This document shows, piece by piece, positions 4,349 through 50,062 of a stretch of DNA of 64,000 bases. The notes under the pieces were generated by a model. The model saw nothing but the letters and a program-made list of their open reading frames with translations, searched no databases and was not told where the DNA came from. Position 1 is the first letter of the stretch, and each line of letters opens with the position of its first letter. The position numbers and the translations under genes are program-made. Source of the stretch: Alphaproteobacteria bacterium (GTDB taxonomy: Bacteria; Pseudomonadota; Alphaproteobacteria; Micavibrionales; UBA2020); NCBI GenBank assembly GCA_027483355.1, contig JAIXUW010000292.1:222226-286225 (forward strand), written 5' to 3'.

Positions 4349-4504
4349 GGCATTGTTCAGTGAAAGTAGTGCATATCAAATTAAAACAACCAACGAGACG
4401 CGACCCCCCGCCTCTCCTTTTTGGCAACTTTTGCTTCCAAGCCCGTAATCGGTTCAGTGAAAAAATCAAGCCGCTGCGTAAAATCATTCAACGCTGTTTC
4501 AGTC

Positions 4505-5755
4505 ATGTCAATCATTGCTACCGCTATAGACCCAAGGCTTGTAGTCAATTTTTTCATCCTTTGTGGCCAGGTTTTAGAATATTGGATCCTCATGATCTTC
4601 TTCATCTCTTTTCCTTGTGCAATCGTGTTTGGAGCTATCCAATACATCATCGTCCCGTATTTCAAGGCCCTATTCTATATGATGTACAAGCAACACGGGA
4701 TGTTTCTTGTTTACATCCACAAGGCGACCCAATGGCGGCTGCTGCTCCCTGTAATCAACTTTTTGGACAAGAAAGCTTGTGCCATGGAATCCGACGCGGT
4801 GTTCAACAATTTTATCTTCAGATGCTTCACCAAGGCAGCGACGTACAGTTGCTACGCGTTTTGCGACACGGCGTACCGCGTTGTCAAGTTTTTCTCCCTC
4901 AAATCCACATCCGAGCCCGCTATGTCCGCCGAACGGATTGCCGAGTTAACAAATGTTGACTATTGGCTCTGCATACATAAGGACGAAAGAGTGGCTCAAT
5001 CCGAAGCGCTCAAGAACGCAAGAAAAAGAGAAAAAGTCGCCCGCATGGAACACGCGGCCCATTTTGTGGACTCGCATATGGAAAACGTGGAACTTCAGCA
5101 AGTCAACGAGGATTTTCAAAGAATGTTGCGCGCGAATGCATCGGCGTTACCCGCCGGCATCAATCCCTCGGATTTAAGCCTGCGGCCCATTTCCGATTTG
5201 GACGGAAAGTCGGTTCTCATGAATCCAAAAATGAGACAAAAGATTCTCGGCGAAGGACTGCCTGACTTTGTACCAACGCACACCAGTTCCAGTTCCAGTT
5301 CCGGCGGACACACTGCGAACATCCCAGTACTGCAGGCTACTTCAGGTTCAAGCGCAGGCTTTGTTCAAGAATCCGCCTCAAAGGCGCCCGTGGAACCCGT
5401 GCAAGTTGAACGGTCTTCCGCTGACAATGCTTCCGAAAAGCCAGGTTTAGCTCCTACTGCGTCAAGAATCACGCGCATTGGAAACACTCGCTATTATTCG
5501 TTCACTAGTCCCGATGGAGAATATTCTTATTATCTCAGTGAACCCAAGCCATTGTCTAAAACTGCGTCCGAGTCGTCGTCAACTGCACCACAGAAAGACG
5601 CATCATCGGTTTACATTGATACTTTGACAGCCAAAAAGATTGAGGCCGAGCGAGATCCTGTCCGCGACGAGGAGTATATCCAGACTCTCAAGGAAGCAAT
5701 TCTGCAAATGGAGAAGCTTCGTGAAATGAACGCCTCCGTTTCGACTGTGGATTGA
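4505..5755 (+). CDS. membrane-associated Ser-rich protein
   Basis: ORF 4421..5755 (444 aa) begins on TTG; the first ATG is at 4505. Hydrophobic N-terminal segments (ILMIFFISFPCAIVFGAIQYIIVPYF), then a Ser/Pro-rich low-complexity region and a C-terminal coiled-coil-like tail. The start is uncertain, but the long open frame argues the whole ORF is coding. Confidence 0.6.
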   Translation: MSIIATAIDPRLVVNFFILCGQVLEYWILMIFFISFPCAIVFGAIQYIIVPYFKALFYMMYKQHGMFLVYIHKATQWRLLLPVINFLDKKACAMESDAVFNNFIFRCFTKAATYSCYAFCDTAYRVVKFFSLKSTSEPAMSAERIAELTNVDYWLCIHKDERVAQSEALKNARKREKVARMEHAAHFVDSHMENVELQQVNEDFQRMLRANASALPAGINPSDLSLRPISDLDGKSVLMNPKMRQKILGEGLPDFVPTHTSSSSSSGGHTANIPVLQATSGSSAGFVQESASKAPVEPVQVERSSADNASEKPGLAPTASRITRIGNTRYYSFTSPDGEYSYYLSEPKPLSKTASESSSTAPQKDASSVYIDTLTAKKIEAERDPVRDEEYIQTLKEAILQMEKLREMNASVSTVD

Positions 5756-14465: not shown

Positions 14466-17400
14466 TTACATTTTACGCATGCGAGTAGTCGCTGTCTTAG
14501 AATTGTAATTACGAGCTCTGGGTGCAGTGGGAGGAGACGGCGGAGGCGTTATTTTGCTTCTCTTTGCGGGCACAGGAGTTCTGCAGCATAACGAATGGAA
14601 TGCGACAGCCACGATTCCGAAACCTGTAATAGCAACAATCACGTATAGAGGAATCAACGCCGTGGGCTGAGCGGGCGGCGTGACGGGCGGCGTCGGAGGT
14701 CCAGTCTGCAATACAATCGTGTGGAATTCTCCCAGTCCGGACAGAAGAATGGAATTTCCGATTTCAGTCGACAATTCTCTGACTGTGACAGGGAATCGAA
14801 CCGATCCACTTGTGTCCGTGTAATCAATGCCATTCACGGCAATGCCGACTTGACCTGAACTATTACGACCCCATGTTTGGATTTCGAACACGGCCTGTGT
14901 CTGACCGGGCTTGTACAATAAAACATGTTCGACTCCGCACCACACGCCGCGAGTGGCAGTCGTATTCGCGACAATTTGAGGCACTGAACTGTATGCCAAT
15001 TCCGCAACTGTTTTGTTCTGACCCAATTGACCGTATTGGTTGGAGCCCCAGGCGTACACGGAAGACGTGTCCTGAGAAATATACAGTCCGTGCGCGCCTC
15101 CTGCGCAAATGTATTGGGTCTGAAGTTGAACGTTGACAGAATCTGGCGGGATACCGAATGCAATCATGGGCGCGTTTCTATTAGGCGACATTTCAGTCGG
15201 ATCGGCCAATTGGCCCCTGTCGTTATTTCCCCACGAGTAGACGACGACAGGGGATCTTTCAGTGACCGCGAACATGAAATCGGAACCGCATGAGATGAGT
15301 CGAATTGACTCGGCTAACATGACTAGTCTGGGCGTTTCCGTGTTGTTATACGACCCGATTCCCAACTGGCCCTTGTCATTCGATCCCCAAGTCCATACCG
15401 CGCCGTCAGTCGACAAAATAGCCGAATAGTTGGCTCCAGCGCACGCTTGTTTGATTTCGAATAATACAGACACGCGCACACGCGAATTGGGAAGAGCCAC
15501 GGCGGCGCGTTCGGTTCTCGGAGCCAGATCCGCGACTCCAAGCTGCCCGAAATCGTTATTACCGTATGTGATTACAAAATCTTCAATCACATTAGGCGGA
15601 TTCTTGGTGACCGTTCTCACGACGGCTACACTGTGCTCCTGACCTCCTGCCAGAAAGTTGATCGCCACATTACGCGTGTTGGAAAACCAAAACTCGATTC
15701 TCTGGCGAATATAATCGAGTTGCGGTGAAATGCGAGGAAGAGGCACGGACACGGTCGTGTTCGACGCCGGGTCAAGCTGAGCGTTTAGGTTTGAACCCCA
15801 TTCGTAGTATCTTTCGCCGGACAGTTTCATAAGATTGTGTTTGTAGCCAACTGCCAGTACTTGCAGGCTTTGAACGGAATTCACGTCGACAAGTTGAATG
15901 AGAGGGTCGATCGAGGACGAGTTGGAGATGACTCTACCCAGTTGACCTAAATCGTTACCACCCCATGAACCGAGATAGTTGCCGTTGACGTTGGGTGGTT
16001 CGATCGGCGGTGGAACAGGCGGCGACACTGGTGCATTTTGAGGAGGCGCGACTGGCGGGGTTTGAGGCGGTGCGACTGGTGGATTCTGGGGAGGCGCGAC
16101 TGGTTGACTTTGAGGCGGAGCGACCGGAGGTGAAACAGGCGGAGCCACTGGCGGCTCTACGGGTGGGGAAACTGGCGGTGCCTGAGGCGGGGCTACTGGT
16201 GGTGACACAGGCGGAGCCACGGGTGGTGCCTGAGGAGGTAAAACCGGAGGCGCGACTGGCGGTTCCACAGGTGGCGAACCTGGAGGAGCTTGTGGTGGTA
16301 ACACAGGAGGGGCGACAGGCGGGGAAACTGGAGGTGCAACAGGCGGGGAAATTGGAGGTGCCTGAGGTGGTAAAACCGGAGGAGCAACTGGCGGCTCTAC
16401 TGGCGGTGCGACAGGGGGAGCCACAGGAGGGGCGACTGGAGGTGACACAGGTGGAGCCACGGGAGGTGCCTGAGGCGGTTCTACAGGCGGAGCCACAGGA
16501 GGCGCTTGAGGAGGCAAAACTGGAGGGGCAACAGGAGGTGTTTGTGGAGGCGAAACTGGTGGAGCGACAGGCGGTGATTGTGGAGGCGAAACCGGAGGCG
16601 CGACAGGCTGCGCTTGAGGCGGTAAAACTGGCGGCGCAACCGGTGGTTCTACAGGCGGTGCCACAGGAGGTGACTGAGGTGGTGAAACCGGGGGCGCGAC
16701 TGGTGGAGCCACTGGAGGTGCTTGAGGTGGTGAAACTGGCGGGGCCACTGGTGGTGCTTGTGGCGGTGAAATCGGTGGAGCTTGAGGAGGCGAAACCGGG
16801 GGCGCAACTGGCGGGGATTGCGGCGGATTCTGGGGAGGCGCGACTGGTGGGGCTAAAGGCGGTGCTACAGGCGGCGAAACCGGAGGCGCAACAGGCGAGG
16901 CGACCGGTGGGGCCACAGGAGGGGCTTGAGGCGGATTTTGCGGAGGAGCCACAGGAGGGGCCTGAGGCGGTGAAACTGGAGGCGCGACTGGCGGTGCAAC
17001 CGGGGGTGCAACTGGAGGTGCCTTGGGCGGAGCGACCGGAGGCGCGACAGGTGCCGCTTGAGGAGCCAAAACCGGAGGTCCAACCGGAGGCGCGACCGGA
17101 GCGGGAGGTAGCACGACCGTTCTAAACCTCCAAACGTCATTATAGTATGTTGTCGGAGTTGTAAACGCGTTCTGCCCGCCTATTAAACCCGTGTTAATAT
17201 TCGAAGGTGAGAAAGGAGATCCTCCGGGCTGTACAAACACTTCGCCGGAAAGTCGCCCGAACGGGAAGTTTAACGCCGAGAACACATTCGGCGCCGGGTA
17301 TGTCCCAAGTGCGTTGCTTGCATTTCCTGCCATCCAAAAAAACTGATCCGAATCATAATCATACGCCCACAGATGCCCGCGGGCGGTTGTTTGGGATTGA

Positions 17401-18449
17401 ACCACCATGTACAACAGGCGCGAATTTGCATTGACCGTGAACATGGCACCGTTTGAATATATTAGCGCAGGATTTCCAAGTGCGTATTGAAGCGTGAAAA
17501 ATTCGGCTGGGCACGGCGCAGCAGCTCCAGCGCCTCCTCCTCCGACCCACGTCCAAATGTTTGTTGCTAAAGTATACAAAAACATGAAACACGAATTTGT
17601 CGTACTTGACGTAGTATACATGGCCAAGTGCGTCGTGTTGTAGGGCGTGTAGGTGCATTGTTTTCGATTACAAGGCAATGCGATTGTTCCTGCGTTCGAA
17701 ACGCGTTTTGTTCCAGCATTTGGAGTCGAAACACCGTCATCTCTCATACATGCGAACAATAAAGTAGAACTGTTGAATCTGTACATGTCCGATCTCAGTG
17801 CACCTCCGGAAGTGGAAGAGCGCCCACCGCTCAGATAAACAATATTATCCAGCGCCGCGGAAACATATCTCATATGGAATACAGCGTATTCGGCTCGTCT
17901 GCCGAATCGAGGAACTCCACAGGAAGGTCCCTGTGTAGTTTGAGTTATAAAAATCCACGTAGGCGACAATAAAGACGTGTCGAGTCTCCACAAATCGCCT
18001 TGGACAGATCCTGCTGAATTATATCCACCATATAAGAATAAAAATCTGTTTTGAAACGTCCAAGCGCCCATGGAGTAACGCGAGCCGATGGAGCTAGGAA
18101 TAGATATCGCGACATTTGTAGCATTACTGCCCGTGACCCAATTCCACGAAGAAGTTGTTGTTTGATATCGAAAAGTGTTAGCGTAAACATTTACACCGTT
18201 CCTGCCGCCCATAATATACACGATAGAATTATTGGGATTTGTGTTGTCCGTAAGCGTCCACAGCGCAAACTCAGACCGCGTAAATGGCGTATTTGGAATC
18301 GCATTCGATGCTCCGCCGCTCAAGTACGCCCATTGTGGTTGAAGCAATGATATTGGCTGCGATACACCAAAGCCGAGAAGCACGGCAACTGAAAAAATCA
18401 CAACCGTTACACATTGGTACACATACCACGCTTTTTTGTGTGTATACAT
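14466..18449 (-). CDS. type-I membrane protein: Kelch-like propeller + (PPV/APP)n stalk + 7-blade RCC1-like propeller + TM anchor
   Basis: ORF 14466..18602 overlaps the stop of the upstream gene; the ATG at 18449 gives a signal-anchor (VTVVIFSVAVLLGFGVS).
- Kelch-like units: VYIMGGRNG...W, LFLYGGYNSAGSVQGDLWRLD, VYLSGGRSS...MYRF.
- About 375 aa of PPVAPPVSPPQAPPVAPP repeats.
- Seven RCC1 signatures: WGGNDLGQLG, WGSNLNAQLD, YGNNDFGQLG, WGSNDKGQLG, WGNNDRGQLA, WGSNQYGQLG, WGRNSSGQVG.
- C-terminal TM segment LIPLYVIVAITGFGIVAVAF plus a basic tail. Confidence 0.8.
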   Translation of the reverse strand: MYTHKKAWYVYQCVTVVIFSVAVLLGFGVSQPISLLQPQWAYLSGGASNAIPNTPFTRSEFALWTLTDNTNPNNSIVYIMGGRNGVNVYANTFRYQTTTSSWNWVTGSNATNVAISIPSSIGSRYSMGAWTFQNRFLFLYGGYNSAGSVQGDLWRLDTSLLSPTWIFITQTTQGPSCGVPRFGRRAEYAVFHMRYVSAALDNIVYLSGGRSSTSGGALRSDMYRFNSSTLLFACMRDDGVSTPNAGTKRVSNAGTIALPCNRKQCTYTPYNTTHLAMYTTSSTTNSCFMFLYTLATNIWTWVGGGGAGAAAPCPAEFFTLQYALGNPALIYSNGAMFTVNANSRLLYMVVQSQTTARGHLWAYDYDSDQFFWMAGNASNALGTYPAPNVFSALNFPFGRLSGEVFVQPGGSPFSPSNINTGLIGGQNAFTTPTTYYNDVWRFRTVVLPPAPVAPPVGPPVLAPQAAPVAPPVAPPKAPPVAPPVAPPVAPPVSPPQAPPVAPPQNPPQAPPVAPPVASPVAPPVSPPVAPPLAPPVAPPQNPPQSPPVAPPVSPPQAPPISPPQAPPVAPPVSPPQAPPVAPPVAPPVSPPQSPPVAPPVEPPVAPPVLPPQAQPVAPPVSPPQSPPVAPPVSPPQTPPVAPPVLPPQAPPVAPPVEPPQAPPVAPPVSPPVAPPVAPPVAPPVEPPVAPPVLPPQAPPISPPVAPPVSPPVAPPVLPPQAPPGSPPVEPPVAPPVLPPQAPPVAPPVSPPVAPPQAPPVSPPVEPPVAPPVSPPVAPPQSQPVAPPQNPPVAPPQTPPVAPPQNAPVSPPVPPPIEPPNVNGNYLGSWGGNDLGQLGRVISNSSSIDPLIQLVDVNSVQSLQVLAVGYKHNLMKLSGERYYEWGSNLNAQLDPASNTTVSVPLPRISPQLDYIRQRIEFWFSNTRNVAINFLAGGQEHSVAVVRTVTKNPPNVIEDFVITYGNNDFGQLGVADLAPRTERAAVALPNSRVRVSVLFEIKQACAGANYSAILSTDGAVWTWGSNDKGQLGIGSYNNTETPRLVMLAESIRLISCGSDFMFAVTERSPVVVYSWGNNDRGQLADPTEMSPNRNAPMIAFGIPPDSVNVQLQTQYICAGGAHGLYISQDTSSVYAWGSNQYGQLGQNKTVAELAYSSVPQIVANTTATRGVWCGVEHVLLYKPGQTQAVFEIQTWGRNSSGQVGIAVNGIDYTDTSGSVRFPVTVRELSTEIGNSILLSGLGEFHTIVLQTGPPTPPVTPPAQPTALIPLYVIVAITGFGIVAVAFHSLCCRTPVPAKRSKITPPPSPPTAPRARNYNSKTATTRMRKM
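15990..17125 (-). repeat. coding 9-bp-periodic proline-rich repeat (PPV/APP/PPQ units)
   Basis: The DNA is a long degenerate GGNGGNNNN-type periodic tract. It keeps the antisense frame open too (spurious 376-aa ORF 15995..17125). Confidence 0.85.
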
Positions 18450-18598
18450 GAATAGTATGTGTTTACTAGTATTATGAAAATATTTTACATGGGTAAAAAC
18501 TAGGCGAAAAATAAGTGTGAACTCGCGCGAGGGGTTGTTCCAAAAATGGAAGGTGTACACACACATACACCCCCCGGGGTGGGCGGGCGCGCACGCTT

Positions 18599-21500
18599 TC
18601 ACTCAACTCGGCGTTTTTTGGATTTGTCGTCTTCATCAGTGCTTGCATCAATTCTCTTCCGCTTGACAATGCGTTGTTCTGGAACAGCGCACATTTGATT
18701 CCAGAATTTAACGCGGTCGGGACCCACTTCGCTACTTTCGTCGAGACACAGCGCCAGTATTCGCAGACAACTATGTACGTCATTTTGAAGTTTTTGCACG
18801 ACCGCGAGCTTGTCGCCAGTGAAGTATTCGGTAAGCCGACTTGATAAAGGTATATCTCCTTTGAGAGGAGTTTCGACCGATTCTTCAACCAACCATTGCA
18901 ACATGTCGACATATTGCTTATTACGGTAGAGTTTGTCTACACAAGCCCTGCAAAATGATTTTACAGGCGCTTTGTCTGTCAATTTATCCAACAGCCTCAT
19001 GTAAACCGGGTTTTGTTGCGACAGCGCGTTGGTCGCCCATTCTCTGACTTGTAGGCATGTCATGTTCAAAACAACATTGAAAAGCGGTTTTGCTTTTGCC
19101 AGTAAGATGATCTTAAGTATAACGTCGTTTCTTGTCCTTCGTATAGTAAAACATTTGTCCATTCCGGAATTGATCCAAAGCCGATGCAACAAGTTATTCG
19201 AGTCATATTCAAATCCAGGCACTATTCGCATCGTTTTTGAGCCAATAGCAACCATGGGATAGGCATCCGCAAAGGCATCGCGCTCCAAATCGTCACTCTG
19301 CCATTGATTCACAGCGGAGCCTATATCCATTGCATATGAGGACAGAGGAAAATGCACAAGAAATCCAAACGCCGCGTCGCAGTATACTGACGGTAGACCC
19401 GATTTCAGCGTGGAATAATCCGAGCCGCGAACATAATTGATTTTCTGTCCTTTGTAGTCTCTTCCTTGTATCTTTGCATAATCAGACAACCCGACGCAAT
19501 ACACACCACAAAGGTATAAGTATTGTTGCAAGGTGTTGAAAAACACCTTTGCGGTCTGGCCGTGCGATGTCATCTCCCATCGATTTTGAAAATAGTCAAT
19601 CTCGGCCGTGATAAGATAACATCGGCGATCGTTTGGGTTGATCAGATTTTTCACCCATCCTTCTTCACTAGACATCTCGTCTTCGTAGTCCGGATAAAAT
19701 TTGTTCCATTCTGAAGAATAAAGTTCAAGTACGCGACAGAAAAAGCCGTTGATGCTACTAAACGAAAGATCAGGGTTTTGGTCTCTATCTTGGGTCCATT
19801 TTCCAAAGTTCAAATTCATCGGGCTAATAAAGGTCTCGACGTAGTTACTTGTTTTGTCTCCCCGAAGCTCTAACAGTAGCAACTGATCACCTGAAGTCTT
19901 GACCCATTGAATCTTTGAAGAATAGCTGCCCAATTCATGCGTGTCGAACAGTGGTATCCCTATAGCGCGTTCAGTTTGATTGAAAAAACGACTCGGCCCT
20001 TGAATGGTTTCCTTGTCCGAATTTTTCAAATCGTTTACGTATTCTCGAGTGTTCACAGGCCCGGCTATGGGGAAGGGCGTTCGGTCAAAAAAGACTCCAT
20101 ACACGCACTGCATAAACGCAGTGGCTTTGAACTCGTCAAATTTGCCGCCGGCGGAGCTCATATCAAGCCTGTAAATTTTTGCGCATATCGAAACGACGGC
20201 GTATCCCATGGCCGCATCGAGAATAATTCGTCCAGTCTCATAACGCGATCGGATCTGCGTTTCGCGTATTTTTGCGTTTCTATAAGTTCTTGAAAAAAAC
20301 GGGTAGGCGCGACGAGCATAGTCGGCAAACTGTGCATTTTCGTCAACGGTAAATTTACGTTCTTCCGGTAGGTTAAACTGTGGGAGTAGTGGAATGTTTG
20401 CCTCGAACATCTGGGGCAAGTCCAGAAACCCGTTGTTGCACGGCTTTCTGTCGTATGTCAGAGCACCCGTCTTAAACAACCGCAGCTGCTTATCGTCCAA
20501 ATGGTAGACTGGAATAAACGTTTTGGCACATTCTACAATTCCGACTTCGTCGGCAAGTTTTGCAAGTACAGGAAGCACGGCATACACGCATATGTTGTTT
20601 GGCCGTACCACAACTGTTTGAAATTCAGACAAACTTTCGATGAGTTCTTCTACCGTATGGCATTTTCTTTCCACTCGGGCGCCGACGGGCACGTAGCTGT
20701 TGCCGGAAAACTGCAACCAGTTAACCAGCACTACCGTTTTTCCATTTTGGTCTTTCTGATAATGGACGCTGAGTATACAAACGACTTTTGGTTCGCGCGC
20801 AACATAAGGCGAAATAATGCTAGCTGTGGGGATGGATCGCCGGCTTTCAAAGGCCAGTTCAAAGCCGAGGAATTGCTGGTTCTTTTCGGGGGCCGCGTGG
20901 TTATAATCCACAAACTTTCCCAGATTGAACAATCGAGTAAACGGTGCATTTCCATTAGCAGAGGCGATTGTCCATTCCAACAAATTTTCGAATGATGGAA
21001 CGCATCCCTGGACCGCCATTTGACGCCACTCAGGCGTGTTAAACGCGTTTGTATCGTCAATCAACATGCTTTGAAAGAGTTTTTGCCCCTTCTCGGACAT
21101 CATATATTCTCCAATGGTCCACGTTCGCGCGTAATCGGGTGAAAACCGCGTAAGCGGCGCCGATCGATCTGAAGGAGCTACGCGTGACATCAAGATCCAA
21201 TGATATTTTCGCAATTCCACGTACTCGTTGTTCTTCAAGTCATCTTTTTGCTTCAAGTCCAAGTATCGAACTGAAAAATCGTTCGATATACAATGCAGTC
21301 TCAAGAGCGTATTGTCCGTGTAAGTCGAAGTTCGAACATAATGCTTGTTGATGAGTTGCAAAGGGATCGCCTTAGAGTGACCAATTCGAACGTTGTCGTC
21401 CAAAACATCGATTTCGCCAAACTCATTTTTTTCCCACGGTCGTTTATCAAAAATTCCATTTGTGGGTTCGAATACAGCAGTGGCTTGTCGTGGCATACCA

Positions 21501-30618: not shown

Positions 30619-30654
30619 ACACACACACACACACACACGCACACACACACACAC
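30619..30654. repeat. (AC)n microsatellite
   Basis: acacacacacacacacacgcacacacacacacacac lies between two convergent genes. It generates the spurious ORF 30517..30699. Confidence 0.9.
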
Positions 30655-30676
30655 ATACAAAAACCGGGAAACGCGC

Positions 30677-45372: not shown

Positions 45373-46353
45373 ATGGATGCTGTTGTTCTTATTACATTGC
45401 TAGAAACAATTGATTTTGCTGCTAAAAAGCACTCCAAGCAACGCAGAAAGAACGCCGATGCCTCGCCCTACATCGGCACGCCCTCTTTGCATTTTTTTCG
45501 CGCGCGTGTATGACACAGCAACGCCTAACACTTTTATGTTCAAACACAGAGCATCCGATTGGCGTTGCCAAATTGCTGGCAGCGGTTGGTGGTGTCACCG
45601 ACATTTCTACGCTCCAAGCCGGCGTATTACACGATACGCTTGAAGACACGGACACTACATTTCAAGAATTGCAGTCCAAGTTTGGCGAGAAAGTGGCCAA
45701 AATTGTGCGGGAAGTACGTACTTTGAGTTTGGCGTTGCCAAGAACGCTAAGAACGGCTCGTTTTCAGGCCCTTGTTTCTTACAAATCCCACACAGGTTAC
45801 CGACGACAAGAGTCTGCCCAAAGACGAACGCAAGAGACTTCAGATCTCACATGCTCCTCATATGTCGACCGAGGCCAAGCTCGTAAAGCTCGCCGACAAG
45901 CTGCACAATCTTCAATCCCTTCAGATCGAGTCTCCTGCTTTATGGTCTAAATCTCGTATTCAAGGATACTTTGCGTGGGCGCACGCTGTCGTCGCTGGTC
46001 TTCGAGGCACAAATCTTTGGCTCGAATCCGCGTTGAAGCAAGTTTTCTCTGGATCGTTCAAGTGCAAAGAGGGCATGTTTCCTACTTTGCCCGAAAACAC
46101 AGAGGCTGCTCTCGAAAATTATCTCAAGGAAATGAAAGAAGTGGATCAGACGGAGAAAGCGCCAAAAATTGTGGGCATCGTCGTTGGTAACATGTGCTTA
46201 AAAACAAAGCCGTGCCAGCATGTTGTTGAAATGGTTTTTGCCGACGGTCGCAGAGAGAAAAAGCGCATGGACGCCGCTGATGTCGCTTTGGCCTTCAAGA
46301 ACGCAAACCTGACGATTCCCGATCATTTTGTAAACGATGTAGCTCACTTTTGA
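45373..46353 (+). CDS. MESH1/HDDC3-like HD-domain hydrolase ((p)ppGpp-hydrolase/small-alarmone-hydrolase fold) with extra C-terminal ~60-aa domain, 3 exons
   Basis: Exon 1 is MDAVVLITLLETIDFAAKKHSKQRRKNADASPYI.... Exon 2 is HPIGVAKLLAAVGGVTDISTLQAGVLHDTLEDTDTTFQELQSKFGEKVAKIVRE. Exon 3 is VTDDKSLPKDERKRLQISHAPHMSTEAKLVKLADKLHNL.... The order matches metazoan MESH1 as I recall it: (DFAA.KH..QRRK....PYI.HP.GVA, LLHDT.EDT, EVTDDK.LPK.ERKR.Q, KLVKLADKL.NL). The C-terminal 46165..46329 is an added domain. Confidence 0.8.
45506..45549 (+). other. first intron of the HD-hydrolase gene (boundaries ambiguous: 45506..45549 GT-AG, or 45476..45549 GC-AG)
   Basis: The acceptor aaacaCAG|AG is preceded by gcctaacac. 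The only in-phase GT donor (GTGTAT at 45506) leaves a 10-aa insertion (GTPSLHFFRA) inside the conserved PYI.HP motif. A GC donor at 45476 would give PYIEHPIGVA, matching the family motif. Confidence 0.5.
45714..45795 (+). other. spliceosomal-type intron (82 nt)
   Basis: GTACGT...cttac...cacaCAG. It joins KIVRE|VTDDKSLPKDERKRLQ in phase 0 and restores the conserved EVTDDK motif. Confidence 0.85.
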
Positions 46354-47119: not shown

Positions 47120-47350
47120 ATGGAACCGAGAAAAGTAGCCCAAATCATACCCAGTGAACTGTGCCGTTCAACTTTTCCGTGCCTACATTCGGTTAAAATT
47201 GTCTTCCAAGACGGAACTGTGGAAACCAAAACAATGGATGGCAACGACATTGCTCAACTCTACCTTAATGCAAACATACAAGTCCCCGCGCACTTTGCCA
47301 TGTATATATCGTCTCCAACGTTTAGTGCAAGCGGTCTCTCTAAACACTAA
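47120..47350 (+). CDS. small protein (76 aa) homologous to the C-terminal domain of the HD hydrolase
   Basis: MEPRKVAQIIPSELCRSTFPCLHSVKIVFQDGTVETKTMDGNDIAQLYLNANIQVPAHF aligns with KIVGIVVGNMCLKTKPCQHVVEMVFADGRREKKRMDAADVALAFKNANLTIPDHF. About 24 of 55 positions are identical by my manual alignment. Confidence 0.55.
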   Translation: MEPRKVAQIIPSELCRSTFPCLHSVKIVFQDGTVETKTMDGNDIAQLYLNANIQVPAHFAMYISSPTFSASGLSKH

Positions 47351-47376: not shown

Positions 47377-47448
47377 GCCGGCGTGGTTCAATTGGTAGAA
47401 TACCTGGTTGTGGCTCAGGCGACGATGGTTCGATTCCACCCGCTGGCA
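47377..47448 (+). tRNA. tRNA-His (anticodon GTG)
   Basis: Manual cloverleaf:
- acceptor gccggcg/cgctggc (one G-U)
- D arm gttc-aattggta-gaat
- anticodon arm cctgg-ttGTGgc-tcagg
- 4-nt variable region
- T arm gatgg-ttcgatt-ccacc (one A-C mismatch, B-box GGTTCGATTCC)
- discriminator A
There is no encoded G-1 or CCA, which is the eukaryote style. Confidence 0.7.
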
Positions 47449-47453
47449 TTGCG

Positions 47454-47530
47454 GACGGCTTAGCTCAGGTGGGATAGTGCTTCATCACGCGCGTATGGGG
47501 AGGTCGCTGGTTCGACCCCAGCAGCTGTCG
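47454..47530 (+). tRNA. tRNA-like gene with abnormal 11-nt anticodon loop (isotype undetermined)
   Basis: Manual fold:
- acceptor gacggct/agctgtc (one G-U)
- U8-A9
- D arm gctc-aggtggga-tagt (3 bp)
- anticodon stem cttca/tgggg (5 bp, two G-U)
- loop tcacgcgcgta (11 nt, contains the palindrome ACGCGCGT)
- variable region aggtc
- perfect T arm gctgg-ttcgacc-ccagc
It starts 5 nt after tRNA-His and is followed by a T5 run. Confidence 0.5.
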
Positions 47531-47535
47531 TGGTC

Positions 47536-47540
47536 TTTTT
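47536..47540 (+). terminator. T5 run, candidate RNA polymerase III terminator for the tRNA pair
   Basis: TTTTT lies 6 nt after the tRNA-like gene, and there is no T-run between the two tRNAs. Confidence 0.4.
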
Positions 47541-47571
47541 ATCCTTTTCCCCCTTTGTTTGTTTATTACAG

Positions 47572-48324
47572 TCAATGTACAATCTCTTGTGTACGTGTGT
47601 CACGCACGCGCGCGCATTTTTTAAGAGCCGCGATAAACAGAATAGGATCGTCCGAATGTTGCATTTGAGTTTTCACAAAATCAACGTTTGAAACTACTTT
47701 TACAAAGCACGAATCTGTGAACTTGCCGCTCGCTTTGAAGGTTTTTCTCAGCAGCTCGGTGTGCTCCGGACGCCATGTATCGACCGAAAAGGCGGGTATG
47801 CCCATCGACAGACGACCTTCGATAGTGACAGGCCAAAACCGCCATGTAGATCGCGGATCGCATCTCATCACAATCCATTCGACGGAACTCTCGCATCGAC
47901 ACCGCGGGCGATTCTTTTTTGGGTCAATGTCATTACACGTGTGAAACGGAATCTTGATTTTTCTATCGGCGTTAGGTTGAACAGAAGCGCTAGTTCTACG
48001 AGGAGTAGTTTTACCTCGCTTTGATTCATAACCGCCTCGGCGTATAGCGCACATTGTGCAATATCCTCCGTTTGATTCCAAGTGAATAACAGGGAAGTAA
48101 ACATAGTTTTGACAGAGTTTGCACATTGCCACGGGCTCAGCAGGCATTTCAGTAACTGGGTCCTTTTGTACCATTGCGTGGCACGAATGTCGTGGATTGG
48201 TTTGATCGTAAGGCGGATCTACTCTTGACATTTGGTTTACTTTGCTGTTTTGTGTTTTAAACGACTGACATACCGCATGGACCACAGATGTCAAAAAAAC
48301 ACGATTTGTGTACGGGGAGGTCAT
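47572..48324 (-). CDS. hypothetical Cys-rich (zinc-ribbon-like) protein
   Basis: 250-aa ATG ORF, with an alternative ATG at 48231 (MSRVDPPYDQ). CKLCQNYVYFPVIHLESNGGYCTMC (CxxC...CxxC) and RCRCESSVEWIVMRC. Its first codons overlap the tRNA 3'-half copy at 48314..48346. Confidence 0.55.
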   Translation of the reverse strand: MTSPYTNRVFLTSVVHAVCQSFKTQNSKVNQMSRVDPPYDQTNPRHSCHAMVQKDPVTEMPAEPVAMCKLCQNYVYFPVIHLESNGGYCTMCAIRRGGYESKRGKTTPRRTSASVQPNADRKIKIPFHTCNDIDPKKNRPRCRCESSVEWIVMRCDPRSTWRFWPVTIEGRLSMGIPAFSVDTWRPEHTELLRKTFKASGKFTDSCFVKVVSNVDFVKTQMQHSDDPILFIAALKKCARVRDTRTQEIVH

Positions 48325-48346
48325 TGGTTCGAGTCCGCAAGCTGTC
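48314..48346 (+). other. orphan copy of a tRNA 3' half (variable region + T arm + 3' acceptor strand)
   Basis: ggggaggtcattggttcgagtccgcaagctgtc versus ggggaggtcgctggttcgaccccagcagctgtc (47497..47529): 26 of 33 identical by manual alignment. The B-box GGTTCGAGTCC is kept but T-stem pairing is lost, and no matching 5' half lies upstream. Confidence 0.55.
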
Positions 48347-48435
48347 TTTGCATTTCCGAACGTTGTTTATTTGTCGTTCATCACTCGCAACACGCATTTA
48401 CATTTTTTTCTATTGTTTTGAAAACAAGCGTTAGA

Positions 48436-48795
48436 ATGGACACTCTACTATGGAACTACGTCTGCCGATGGCAGAACGAGAGTTTGTCCGGAAACACAAC
48501 AGAAACGCTCAAGTTCAAGCACAAGAACCGCAAGGGCACTGTTCAACTGAAATGGTGGAAACAGAGAAGTATGCTCATTATCAAAGCCGTGGAAATGGAC
48601 ACGGGAGTGTCCCACACCAAGGGCGAGTTCACACAGGCTTGCCGCGATGTTTTACTCTCTCATAGCGACGTGATTAAATGCGTCAGAATGGAGTCTGTCT
48701 CATCGGGCGGATACGCTGAATATTTGAAGGCACAAGGATGGACCGTGGCCGGGCCTTTTTACACAGGAATGAACGCCGATTTATGTGTACAATAA
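48436..48795 (+). CDS. hypothetical protein (119 aa)
   Basis: ORF 48232..48795; first plausible ATG at 48436 (MDTLLWNYVCRWQNESL...), downstream of the divergent gene start. No motif recognised. Confidence 0.5.
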   Translation: MDTLLWNYVCRWQNESLSGNTTETLKFKHKNRKGTVQLKWWKQRSMLIIKAVEMDTGVSHTKGEFTQACRDVLLSHSDVIKCVRMESVSSGGYAEYLKAQGWTVAGPFYTGMNADLCVQ

Positions 48796-49163: not shown

Positions 49164-49294
49164 AATAACGCAACGTAACGCAGCGCGACGCAACGCGGCG
49201 CACCAGCGCGCAAAGGACCGCAGCGCAGCGCAACGCAACGCGACGCACCGCAACCCACCGCAGCGCAGCGCGACGCACCGCAGCGCAACGCAGC
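49164..49294. repeat. degenerate pentanucleotide array (CGCAR/CGCGA/CGCAC)n, about 26 units
   Basis: cgcaa cgtaa cgcag cgcga cgcaa cgcgg cgcac ... cgcag cgcaa cgcag, with strict 5-nt phasing visible across thirteen 10-nt blocks. It lies in the divergent spacer between 48983(-) and 49394(+). It creates three spurious overlapping minus-strand ORFs (AALRC-type). Confidence 0.85.
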
Positions 49295-49393: not shown

Positions 49394-50062
49394 ATGGATT
49401 TAGAAGAGAGCAAACCACGAAAGAAAAGACCGCTGCCGTATATTGCATCGGGTACTTTTGACCTTTTGGACAATATATTCGAACCAAATCCAAATCTCAA
49501 AAATACATCTAAGCGCGCAAAACATAACCCTGCAACGGCTGTGACGCTCAGTGTCCCAACTCGCTCGACCGTGATACATCGATTCGGAAAGGCAAAAGCG
49601 GTCGCATTCGTCAAATCTGATATTTTGGGGTTCTCCGAACAAGACATTCAACTATCTTTGCATTGGGCGGAGTCGGACACGACGGAGCTCGGAAAATGGT
49701 ACACAGGTTTATCTGCTGCCAACTTTGCGCCCAAAAGTTTGGAAATGACTTCCAACACCAACGAAATGGAGATATATTACACTATCCCCAAATCGTATGA
49801 ACCCAGAGTGGCACAGGAAGTCCGGCAAAATCTATTAGTGCCCGGAACCAAGGTAACCGCGTTTTTAAAAGCGAATCAACAAGAATTTTCATTTGTGATA
49901 TCTCGTTTGCAACAATCGACCGCGCAACGGCAGCACAGCGGAGTTATGTTTATACTCGCCGCGGAATCTTCCGGAAACGTGTCCGCCCAGCCCGCCAACT
50001 TCTTTAAAAAGCCGGCACCCAGACGTGAAATACGTAAAAATGCGTTTGGAATCCATTTATAA
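49394..50062 (+). CDS. hypothetical protein with N-terminal NLS-like SKPRKKRP
   Basis: 222-aa ATG ORF (MDLEESKPRKKRPLPY...). No other motif recognised. Confidence 0.6.
   Translation: MDLEESKPRKKRPLPYIASGTFDLLDNIFEPNPNLKNTSKRAKHNPATAVTLSVPTRSTVIHRFGKAKAVAFVKSDILGFSEQDIQLSLHWAESDTTELGKWYTGLSAANFAPKSLEMTSNTNEMEIYYTIPKSYEPRVAQEVRQNLLVPGTKVTAFLKANQQEFSFVISRLQQSTAQRQHSGVMFILAAESSGNVSAQPANFFKKPAPRREIRKNAFGIHL

Follow-up and report, generated by a model that had tools for sequence, protein, structure and literature searches.

The closest described counterparts of the repeat studied here are the transfer RNA (tRNA) pseudogene fragments that duplication or rearrangement leaves behind at breakpoints, such as the partial copies beside tRNA clusters in the genomes of organelles, phages and giant viruses, the islands and prophages integrated into tRNA genes (tDNA islands), and the extra-TFIIIC (ETC) sites or orphan B-boxes of eukaryotic nuclear genomes. 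Several genes, an integrase among them, make up the known tDNA islands, and a regenerated tRNA gene together with a displaced 3′ fragment is the signature that Islander uses for them (PMC4383910). Here, we analysed a stretch of 64,000 nucleotides (hereafter the window) of contig JAIXUW010000292.1, filed under Alphaproteobacteria (assembly GCA_027483355.1, positions 222,226 to 286,225 of the forward strand). In this stretch, the 3′ half of a tRNA-like gene is repeated on the same strand, beyond a 783-bp interval that holds a single gene coding for a Cys/His-rich protein. We call the second, isolated copy the orphan; the features of the locus are collected in Table 1, and all positions are those of the window.

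Like the tRNA pseudogene fragments, the orphan consists of a 3′ half only, lies on the same strand near a paralogue, has lost stem complementarity and goes undetected as a tRNA, and its region shows other local duplication. It departs from them in that the "parent" is here itself non-canonical and in that an ancestral intact third copy was not observed in the relatives found. With the tDNA islands and prophages catalogued by Islander (PMC4383910), the locus shares a regenerated-looking gene followed by a 3′ fragment in the same orientation, with homology that begins in the anticodon loop and reaches the end of the acceptor. Unlike these islands, it has no integrase, spans 783 bp with one gene, and has no exact core, the two copies agreeing at 78-79% and differing mostly in the T arm; it also lies in what appears to be a eukaryote-type giant-virus genome and not in a prokaryotic chromosome. 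Finally, as in ETC sites and orphan B-boxes, an isolated perfect B-box stands in a divergent intergenic region with neither an A-box nor a full tRNA. Unlike ETC sites, the orphan has an evident origin as a tRNA fragment and has kept sequence beyond the B-box, and its setting appears to be viral, a context in which such sites are not established.

We favour, with moderate confidence, the reading that the orphan is a functionless truncated pseudogene of a further paralogous tRNA-like copy, left by duplication or rearrangement of a tRNA cluster, and that the Cys/His-rich gene is an unrelated resident. A small virus-borne cluster would have held the tRNA-His gene and the tRNA-like gene, together with at least one other related copy, and would have been reshuffled through the local duplication and rearrangement that are common in these genomes. 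A break in or close to the anticodon loop would have cost this other copy its 5′ half, its T stem would have decayed afterwards, and the orphan would now be inert spacer amid a divergent intergenic region. The Cys/His-rich gene, coding for 219 aa, would be an ordinary viral resident located there by chance and not integrating cargo. We infer the order of these events and the orphan's lack of a present function from the observations that follow.

The repeat pair and the tRNA-like genes

The two copies, GGGGAGGTCGCTGGTTCGACCCCAGCAGCTGTC (47497-47529) and GGGGAGGTCATTGGTTCGAGTCCGCAAGCTGTC (48314-48346), lie on the same strand and agree at 26 of 33 positions, as the original prediction had stated. 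A degenerate pattern written for both copies and searched with up to three mismatches found two sites in the 64-kb window, each with 0 mismatches, and had 0 matches in 100 dinucleotide-preserving shuffles; at this tolerance, the window holds no further copy beyond these two. The additional similarity proposed just upstream of the 33-mer was also borne out. Indeed, a local alignment of the copies extends without gaps from GTATGGGG.../GTACGGGG... to AGCTGTC, with GTA(T/C)GGGG at its start and 29 of 37 positions identical, and a repeat search lengthens the pair to 47493-47538 and 48310-48355 (46 nt, 74%). The aligned span opens on the 3′ side of the anticodon loop and closes with the final base of the acceptor, so that the repeat is exactly a tRNA 3′ half.

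Copy 1 is made up of the end of the anticodon loop, the 3′ strand of the anticodon stem, the variable loop AGGTC, the T arm GCTGG/TTCGACC/CCAGC and the acceptor strand AGCTGTC. Judged by the bases that are shared, the orphan is homologous to this tRNA-like gene (47455-47531) in particular, and the likeness goes beyond a generic T loop: the copies have in common such idiosyncratic parts as the anticodon-stem 3′ strand with the variable loop, GTAYGGGGAGGTC (12/13), and the acceptor strand (7/7). Their longest common exact run is GGGGAGGTC, of 9 nt, within an overall identity of 78-79%. The mismatches are unevenly placed, the 17-nt T arm holding seven of the eight and the remaining 20 nt a single one (Fisher p=0.014, in a small post hoc test with n=8 mismatches). 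This looks like the pattern of paralogous tRNA copies that have diverged in a stem, and not like the uniform decay of an attachment-site (att) duplication that was identical at first.

The claim that the second copy has no 5′ half was upheld by every approach taken. Upstream of the orphan, the best Smith-Waterman local score with the 5′ half of the tRNA-like gene was 5, a value reached in 494 of 500 shuffles, and no tRNA was found at the orphan by Rfam at E<=10 or by ARAGORN, even when thresholds were relaxed and introns allowed. In the T stem, ATTGG/CCGCA, three of the five positions pair, and the orphan has no stable fold (folding z-scores of +0.06 and +1.19). With the 5′ half of the resident tRNA-like gene, it pairs less well than the resident 3′ half does, C39 and not U standing opposite A31. 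Significant partial similarity to tRNA, the lack of a cloverleaf and disrupted stems are the criteria of a tRNA pseudogene fragment, and the orphan shows all of these.

The same searches bear on whether the orphan could be the 3′ exon, or the 3′ half, of a long-intron, split or permuted tRNA with the open reading frame (ORF) lying inside the "intron". The homology starts near the canonical 37/38 intron position, and long "introns" reported by ARAGORN in giant-virus tRNAs provide a precedent (PMC11946776). We consider this hardly credible for the present locus. ARAGORN, set to accept introns of up to 1200 nt and thresholds as low as 70%, built no tRNA that uses the orphan; no upstream segment is able to pair with AGCTGTC as the 5′ strand of an acceptor stem; with two of the five T-stem positions unpaired, the half could not fold; and the only compatible 5′ half is already part of a complete gene. 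With ARAGORN, Rfam at E<=10 and the Smith-Waterman comparison to shuffles all negative, a split or long-intron tRNA is essentially excluded.

Copy 1 had been assigned to a tRNA-like gene, and the similarity to tRNA holds but is marginal. The gene scores 31.1 bits against a gathering threshold of 29 in an 8-kb scan with permissive filters, and is absent from the gathering scan of the whole window. Its acceptor stem, D arm and T arm are sound; its anticodon arm is aberrant. The Rfam alignment leaves 11 nt between the anticodon-stem strands, with a (CG)3 run inside, and ARAGORN reports tRNA-?(Ala|Arg)(cgcg), with an 8-nt loop and a 4-base anticodon. The ARAGORN alternative, Arg(gcg), reads a 7-nt loop, ACGCGCG, which places C at positions 33 and 37, and leaves a C.U mismatch in the stem. 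The canonical anticodon arm, in which a 5-bp stem closes a loop of 7 nt with U33 and a purine in position 37, was not found in the gene, and no reading of it gives U33. The loop may have been expanded by slippage at the (CG)3 run. The gene would be a pseudogene or else specify a non-decoding tRNA-like RNA transcribed together with the tRNA-His, and should be flagged as non-canonical or as a pseudogene.

Upstream of the tRNA-like gene lies the canonical tRNA-His gene, in which the base at position -1 is T, so that G-1 is not encoded. The gap between the two genes is 5-6 nt long and contains no T-run, and the first oligo-T past both of them is a T5 run. Oligo-T acts as a terminator for RNA polymerase III (Pol III), and the T5 run is a putative Pol III-type terminator of a dicistronic unit, the two genes probably forming one transcription unit.

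The locus therefore presents a gradient of decay, from the intact His gene through the damaged tRNA-like gene down to an isolated 3′ fragment. Duplication has also left a trace in the protein-coding genes next to it. The 76-aa ORF just upstream of the tRNA-His gene matches the C-terminal extension of a MESH1-like gene (46165-46329, +) with 44% identity over 55 aa (BLASTP, E=1e-16; confirmed by tblastn). As the two members of this paralogous pair are about 1 kb apart, local duplication has taken place in the neighbourhood, and this separate evidence of it lies 150 bp away. The original prediction had named recombination between tRNA copies, or a remnant tRNA array, as the alternative to a pair of left and right attachment sites (attL/attR). 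With the T-arm mismatches, the decay gradient and the local duplication, it is this alternative that fits better.

The enclosed gene and the integration hypothesis

The interval between the copies had been described as holding a single Cys-rich ORF of 250 aa whose 5′ end overlaps the repeat. It is indeed the only enclosed gene, but it codes for 219 aa. Among 5.8 billion proteins, the close relatives of the 250-aa ORF were the ORF itself, P0002 (59% identity, 219 aa) and P0003 (52%, 226 aa). Both homologues begin at MSR, equivalent to M32 of the 250-aa ORF, and nucleotide as well as translated similarity to the homologues stops exactly at 48231. The coding sequence is for these reasons 47572-48231. 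The 31-codon extension to the ATG at 48324 is spurious: the frames upstream of the start are open for 45 codons in the window, 49 in contig L002 and 18 in contig L006, and are not conserved. The overlap with the repeat arose only through this far-upstream ATG and is not supported; with the start corrected to 48231, the repeat lies 83 nt upstream of the coding sequence.

On the attL/attR hypothesis, site-specific recombination in the anticodon loop of the tRNA-like gene brought in a small element that carried the Cys-rich gene along with a copy of the tRNA 3′ half. The gene would have been regenerated (attL), the original 3′ half displaced to 48310-48346 (attR), and the repeats would have diverged later, any integrase having acted in trans or having been lost. 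The protein, however, gives no sign of being the enzyme. It has an N-terminal CxxC...CxxC and a conserved C-terminal domain of the form H-x-C...RCxCE...CDP...WP, with H97, C99, C111, C113, E114, C124, D125, W133, P134 and H157 invariant, which looks like a zinc-binding module. No Pfam match was found at E<=0.01 and no PHROGs match at E<=1; the sole match in the Protein Data Bank (PDB) was to a RING finger at E=0.83, which is not meaningful, and tblastn had no match in phage genomes. An AlphaFold2 model built from an alignment of three sequences reached a predicted local distance difference test (pLDDT) score of 45.6, and Foldseek gave no match at E<=0.001 (best E=1.2); at such a pLDDT, its matches are meaningless. 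The recombinase, endonuclease or transposase fold for which a search had been advised was thus not found with Pfam, PHROGs, PDB profiles or Foldseek, and the sole enclosed gene shows no tyrosine or serine recombinase, transposase or nuclease signature.

An exhaustive profile search over 1.84 billion representatives brought in a single distant relative, P0004 (E=8e-7), similar in the C-terminal domain only, and the same domain occurs in an 847-kb giant-virus contig of IMG/VR (L010). In so far as the family can be characterised, it is a set of lineage-specific giant-virus genes that cannot be recognised as coding for an enzyme of mobile elements.

The neighbourhoods of the relatives were compared in nine contigs: L002 to L006 carry homologues of the ORF, L007 a distant homologue, L010 the IMG/VR relative, L008 a homologue of the right-hand neighbour and L009 the best relative of the MESH1-like gene. 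The relatives of the ORF occupy five other kinds of locus, all of them unrelated neighbourhoods. The nearest relatives belong to the assemblies GCA_006365035.1 and GCA_006365135.1, the runs SRR24472966, SRR33878160 and SRR22387961, and IMGVR_UViG_3300031825_000001. No neighbour is shared with the window in L002-L010, and no tRNA, tRNA fragment or B-box lies beside the homologues in these contigs, so that the gene family occurs independently of tRNAs. Direct repeats bracketing the gene were sought in four contigs (L002, L006, L007 and L010), and none was found save one 16-nt pair in L010. Such non-syntenic positions are compatible with a mobile gene, but an element that targets tRNA genes would be expected beside them, and the homologue contigs lack any adjoining tRNA or fragment. 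P0005, the homologue of the 119-aa right-hand neighbour, follows an unrelated gene in L008 after a 6-bp gap, likewise without a tRNA. DNA patterns for the 3′ half and for the D arm with the T loop had no match in viral contigs and none in metagenome contigs.

The 16-nt motif in L010, GACATGCA(T/C)GTATATA, stands at 4487-4502 and 5385-5400 of that contig, on either side of the distant ORF homologue. AT-rich strings resembling it occur near the gene ends in L006, and the motif is absent around the ORF of the window. In that lineage, it may serve as a promoter or terminator signal. Two other matches were set aside. One prokaryotic contig, from Enterovibrio, matched the tRNA-like pattern by chance in a non-tRNA sequence, the other prokaryotic scan giving none, and the sole match of a degenerate tRNA-His pattern in viral contigs was an unrelated phage tRNA cluster (L011).

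The geometry of the locus is that of an integration, and this part of the original claim stood. Order and orientation agree, with the regenerated gene upstream and the displaced 3′ fragment downstream on the same strand; the homology begins in the anticodon loop; and the loop of the tRNA-like gene is abnormal exactly at the homology boundary. Williams is said to have described the anticodon loop, in 2002, as a classical crossover sublocation. The GC content at third codon positions (GC3) of the ORF is also somewhat low. What was missing is a recombinase, an identity core, foreign composition and an association of the homologues with tRNAs. The interval is one gene in 783 bp, as against multigene islands with an integrase. 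Its composition is ordinary, trinucleotide divergence lying at the 43rd percentile, and the codon adaptation index of the ORF (0.813) falls inside the range of the other genes (0.77-0.83). There is no contiguous exact core, 9 nt being the longest run at 78-79% identity with clustering in the T arm, although an old event could have erased one. With the resident 5′ half, the orphan pairs worse rather than better (A31 opposite C39), and it has a broken T stem of its own. Moreover, integration targeted to tDNA is a prokaryotic mechanism and, to our knowledge, has not been described in eukaryotic giant-virus genomes, whereas the window looks like a eukaryotic giant virus. Altogether, we regard an attL/attR origin as unlikely.

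Taken further, the interval could be a minimal tRNA-targeting giant-virus cassette, its Cys/His-rich protein being a new recombinase or nuclease that inserts into anticodon loops; we hold this to be very improbable. If true, it would be the first tDNA-type site-specific integration system in a eukaryotic giant-virus genome, and a one-gene cassette with a new kind of recombinase would matter for the biology of giant-virus mobile elements.

Function or debris

The orphan lies in the middle of a 204-bp spacer between divergent genes, 83 nt upstream of the Cys-rich gene and 90 nt upstream of the 119-aa gene. A T-rich stretch separates it from the ATG of each flanking gene, and the orphan is outside both stretches. 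Its B-box, GGTTCGAGTCC at 48326-48336, is intact and fits the consensus GGTTCGANTCC perfectly, outside any tRNA gene; the window has four sites for this consensus against 0.61 expected.

These features raise the question of a retained function, either as an isolated B-box, a TFIIIC-binding ETC-type site that would form a boundary between the divergent genes, or as a tRNA-like transcript tag for tRNA-processing enzymes. The orphan supplies one of the four perfect sites, its differences from copy 1 all spare the specified B-box positions, and its place is central in the divergent intergenic region. Spliceosomal-type introns in the window also point to probable nuclear expression, where Pol III and TFIIIC are available. 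Against this, at a divergence of about 22%, chance would spare nine specified positions in roughly one case out of ten, and a B-box function does not explain why GGGGAGGTC and AGCTGTC have been retained. The RNA structure of the orphan is not stable, and the homologous intergenic regions of L002, L006 and L008 contain no B-box. We therefore judge a retained function to be distinctly unlikely.

A fourth B-box match, GGTTCGATTCC at 14792-14802 (-), was rejected as a chance occurrence; it lies inside the coding sequence of a Kelch/RCC1 ORF, with no tRNA features around it. In the 120 nt upstream of 39 ORFs, the only enriched 7-mers were the T-runs GTGTTTT, GTTTTTT and TTTTTTG (5- to 10-fold), which suggests that T-runs are a T-rich promoter or terminator signal of this genome. 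A scan for bacterial promoters and terminators gave counts equal to the shuffle expectation.

Several observations weigh against the pseudogene reading. Neither an intact third tRNA nor an empty site was seen, the relatives found being all non-syntenic. The layout, an intact gene followed on the same strand by a 3′ fragment that starts in the anticodon loop, is the geometry of tDNA integration. The perfect B-box kept by the orphan is a possible hint of function. The GC3 of the ORF, 0.44, lies about 2 standard deviations under the window mean of 0.525 +/- 0.041, and the mismatch clustering comes from the small post hoc test mentioned above.

If the orphan is a truncated pseudogene, as we favour, it would be a small piece of genomic debris, a trace of the turnover of genes beside a small tRNA cluster in a giant-virus-like lineage that has been poorly sampled. 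The repeat is real but ordinary, and matters little as it stands. Its use lies in annotation, where 48231 should become the ORF start, the second "tRNA" be treated as non-canonical, and the orphan not be read as an att site.

Genomic setting

The window is densely coding, with about 47% GC, and its ORFs are mostly without a Pfam match; the domains found include ankyrin, Kelch/RCC1, Sina-RING, dual-specificity phosphatase, kinase and subtilase. Its MESH1-like gene, of the ppGpp hydrolase family, has P0007 as its best match (63% identity) and is spread over three frames. A splice model with exons at 45373-45475, 45550-45713 and 45796-46353 restores PYIEHP and REVTDDK exactly as in P0007. The first intron (45476-45549) is a 74-nt GC-AG intron, and the second (45714-45795), of 82 nt, is a GT-AG intron that reads GTACGT..CACAG. 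Since these introns are of spliceosomal type, the expression of this virus-like genome would depend on the nucleus. Taken together, the setting points to the window being part of a nucleus-dependent giant virus or of an endogenised copy of one.

Table 1. Coordinates of the features at and around the repeat (window positions)
Feature	Position	Strand	Basis or description
MESH1-like HD-domain gene (ppGpp hydrolase family), three frames	45373-46353	+	splice model vs P0007
76-aa gene just upstream of tRNA-His	47120-47350	+	paralogue of MESH1 C-terminal extension
tRNA-His (GTG), canonical	47377-47448	+	Rfam RF00005 58.1 bits; ARAGORN
tRNA-like gene, aberrant anticodon arm	47455-47531	+	Rfam 31.1 bits; ARAGORN
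Repeat copy 1, 3′ half of tRNA-like gene	47493-47529	+	sequence, repeat search, alignment
T5 run, first oligo-T past both tRNAs	47536-47540	+	read from sequence
Cys/His-rich lineage-specific gene, 219 aa	47572-48231	-	homologues P0002, P0003
Divergent intergenic spacer, 204 bp	48232-48435	.	between Cys-rich gene (-) and 119-aa gene (+)
Repeat copy 2, orphan tRNA 3′ half	48310-48346	+	GTACGGGGAGGTC-ATTGG-TTCGAGT-CCGCA-AGCTGTC
119-aa gene, right-hand neighbour	48436-48795	+	homologue P0005, 69% identical over 99% length

The C-terminal extension of the MESH1-like protein, a small duplicated domain, is about 60 aa long and absent from its MESH1 homologues, the top matches covering about 61-65% of the query. 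Within the ORF at 14466-18602 (-), the segment 16027-17039 has 58.5% GC, a strong GC skew and nested coding tandem repeats of 24, 36, 72 and 108 nt; in the encoded 1378-aa protein these are central, with Kelch on their N-terminal and RCC1 on their C-terminal side. At 49167-49292, the pentamer AACGC is repeated in tandem about 25 times (a period of 20 is scored as well), in intergenic sequence upstream of a 222-aa gene at 49394. Finally, an (AC)20 microsatellite occupies 30619-30659, between two convergent or adjacent ORFs.

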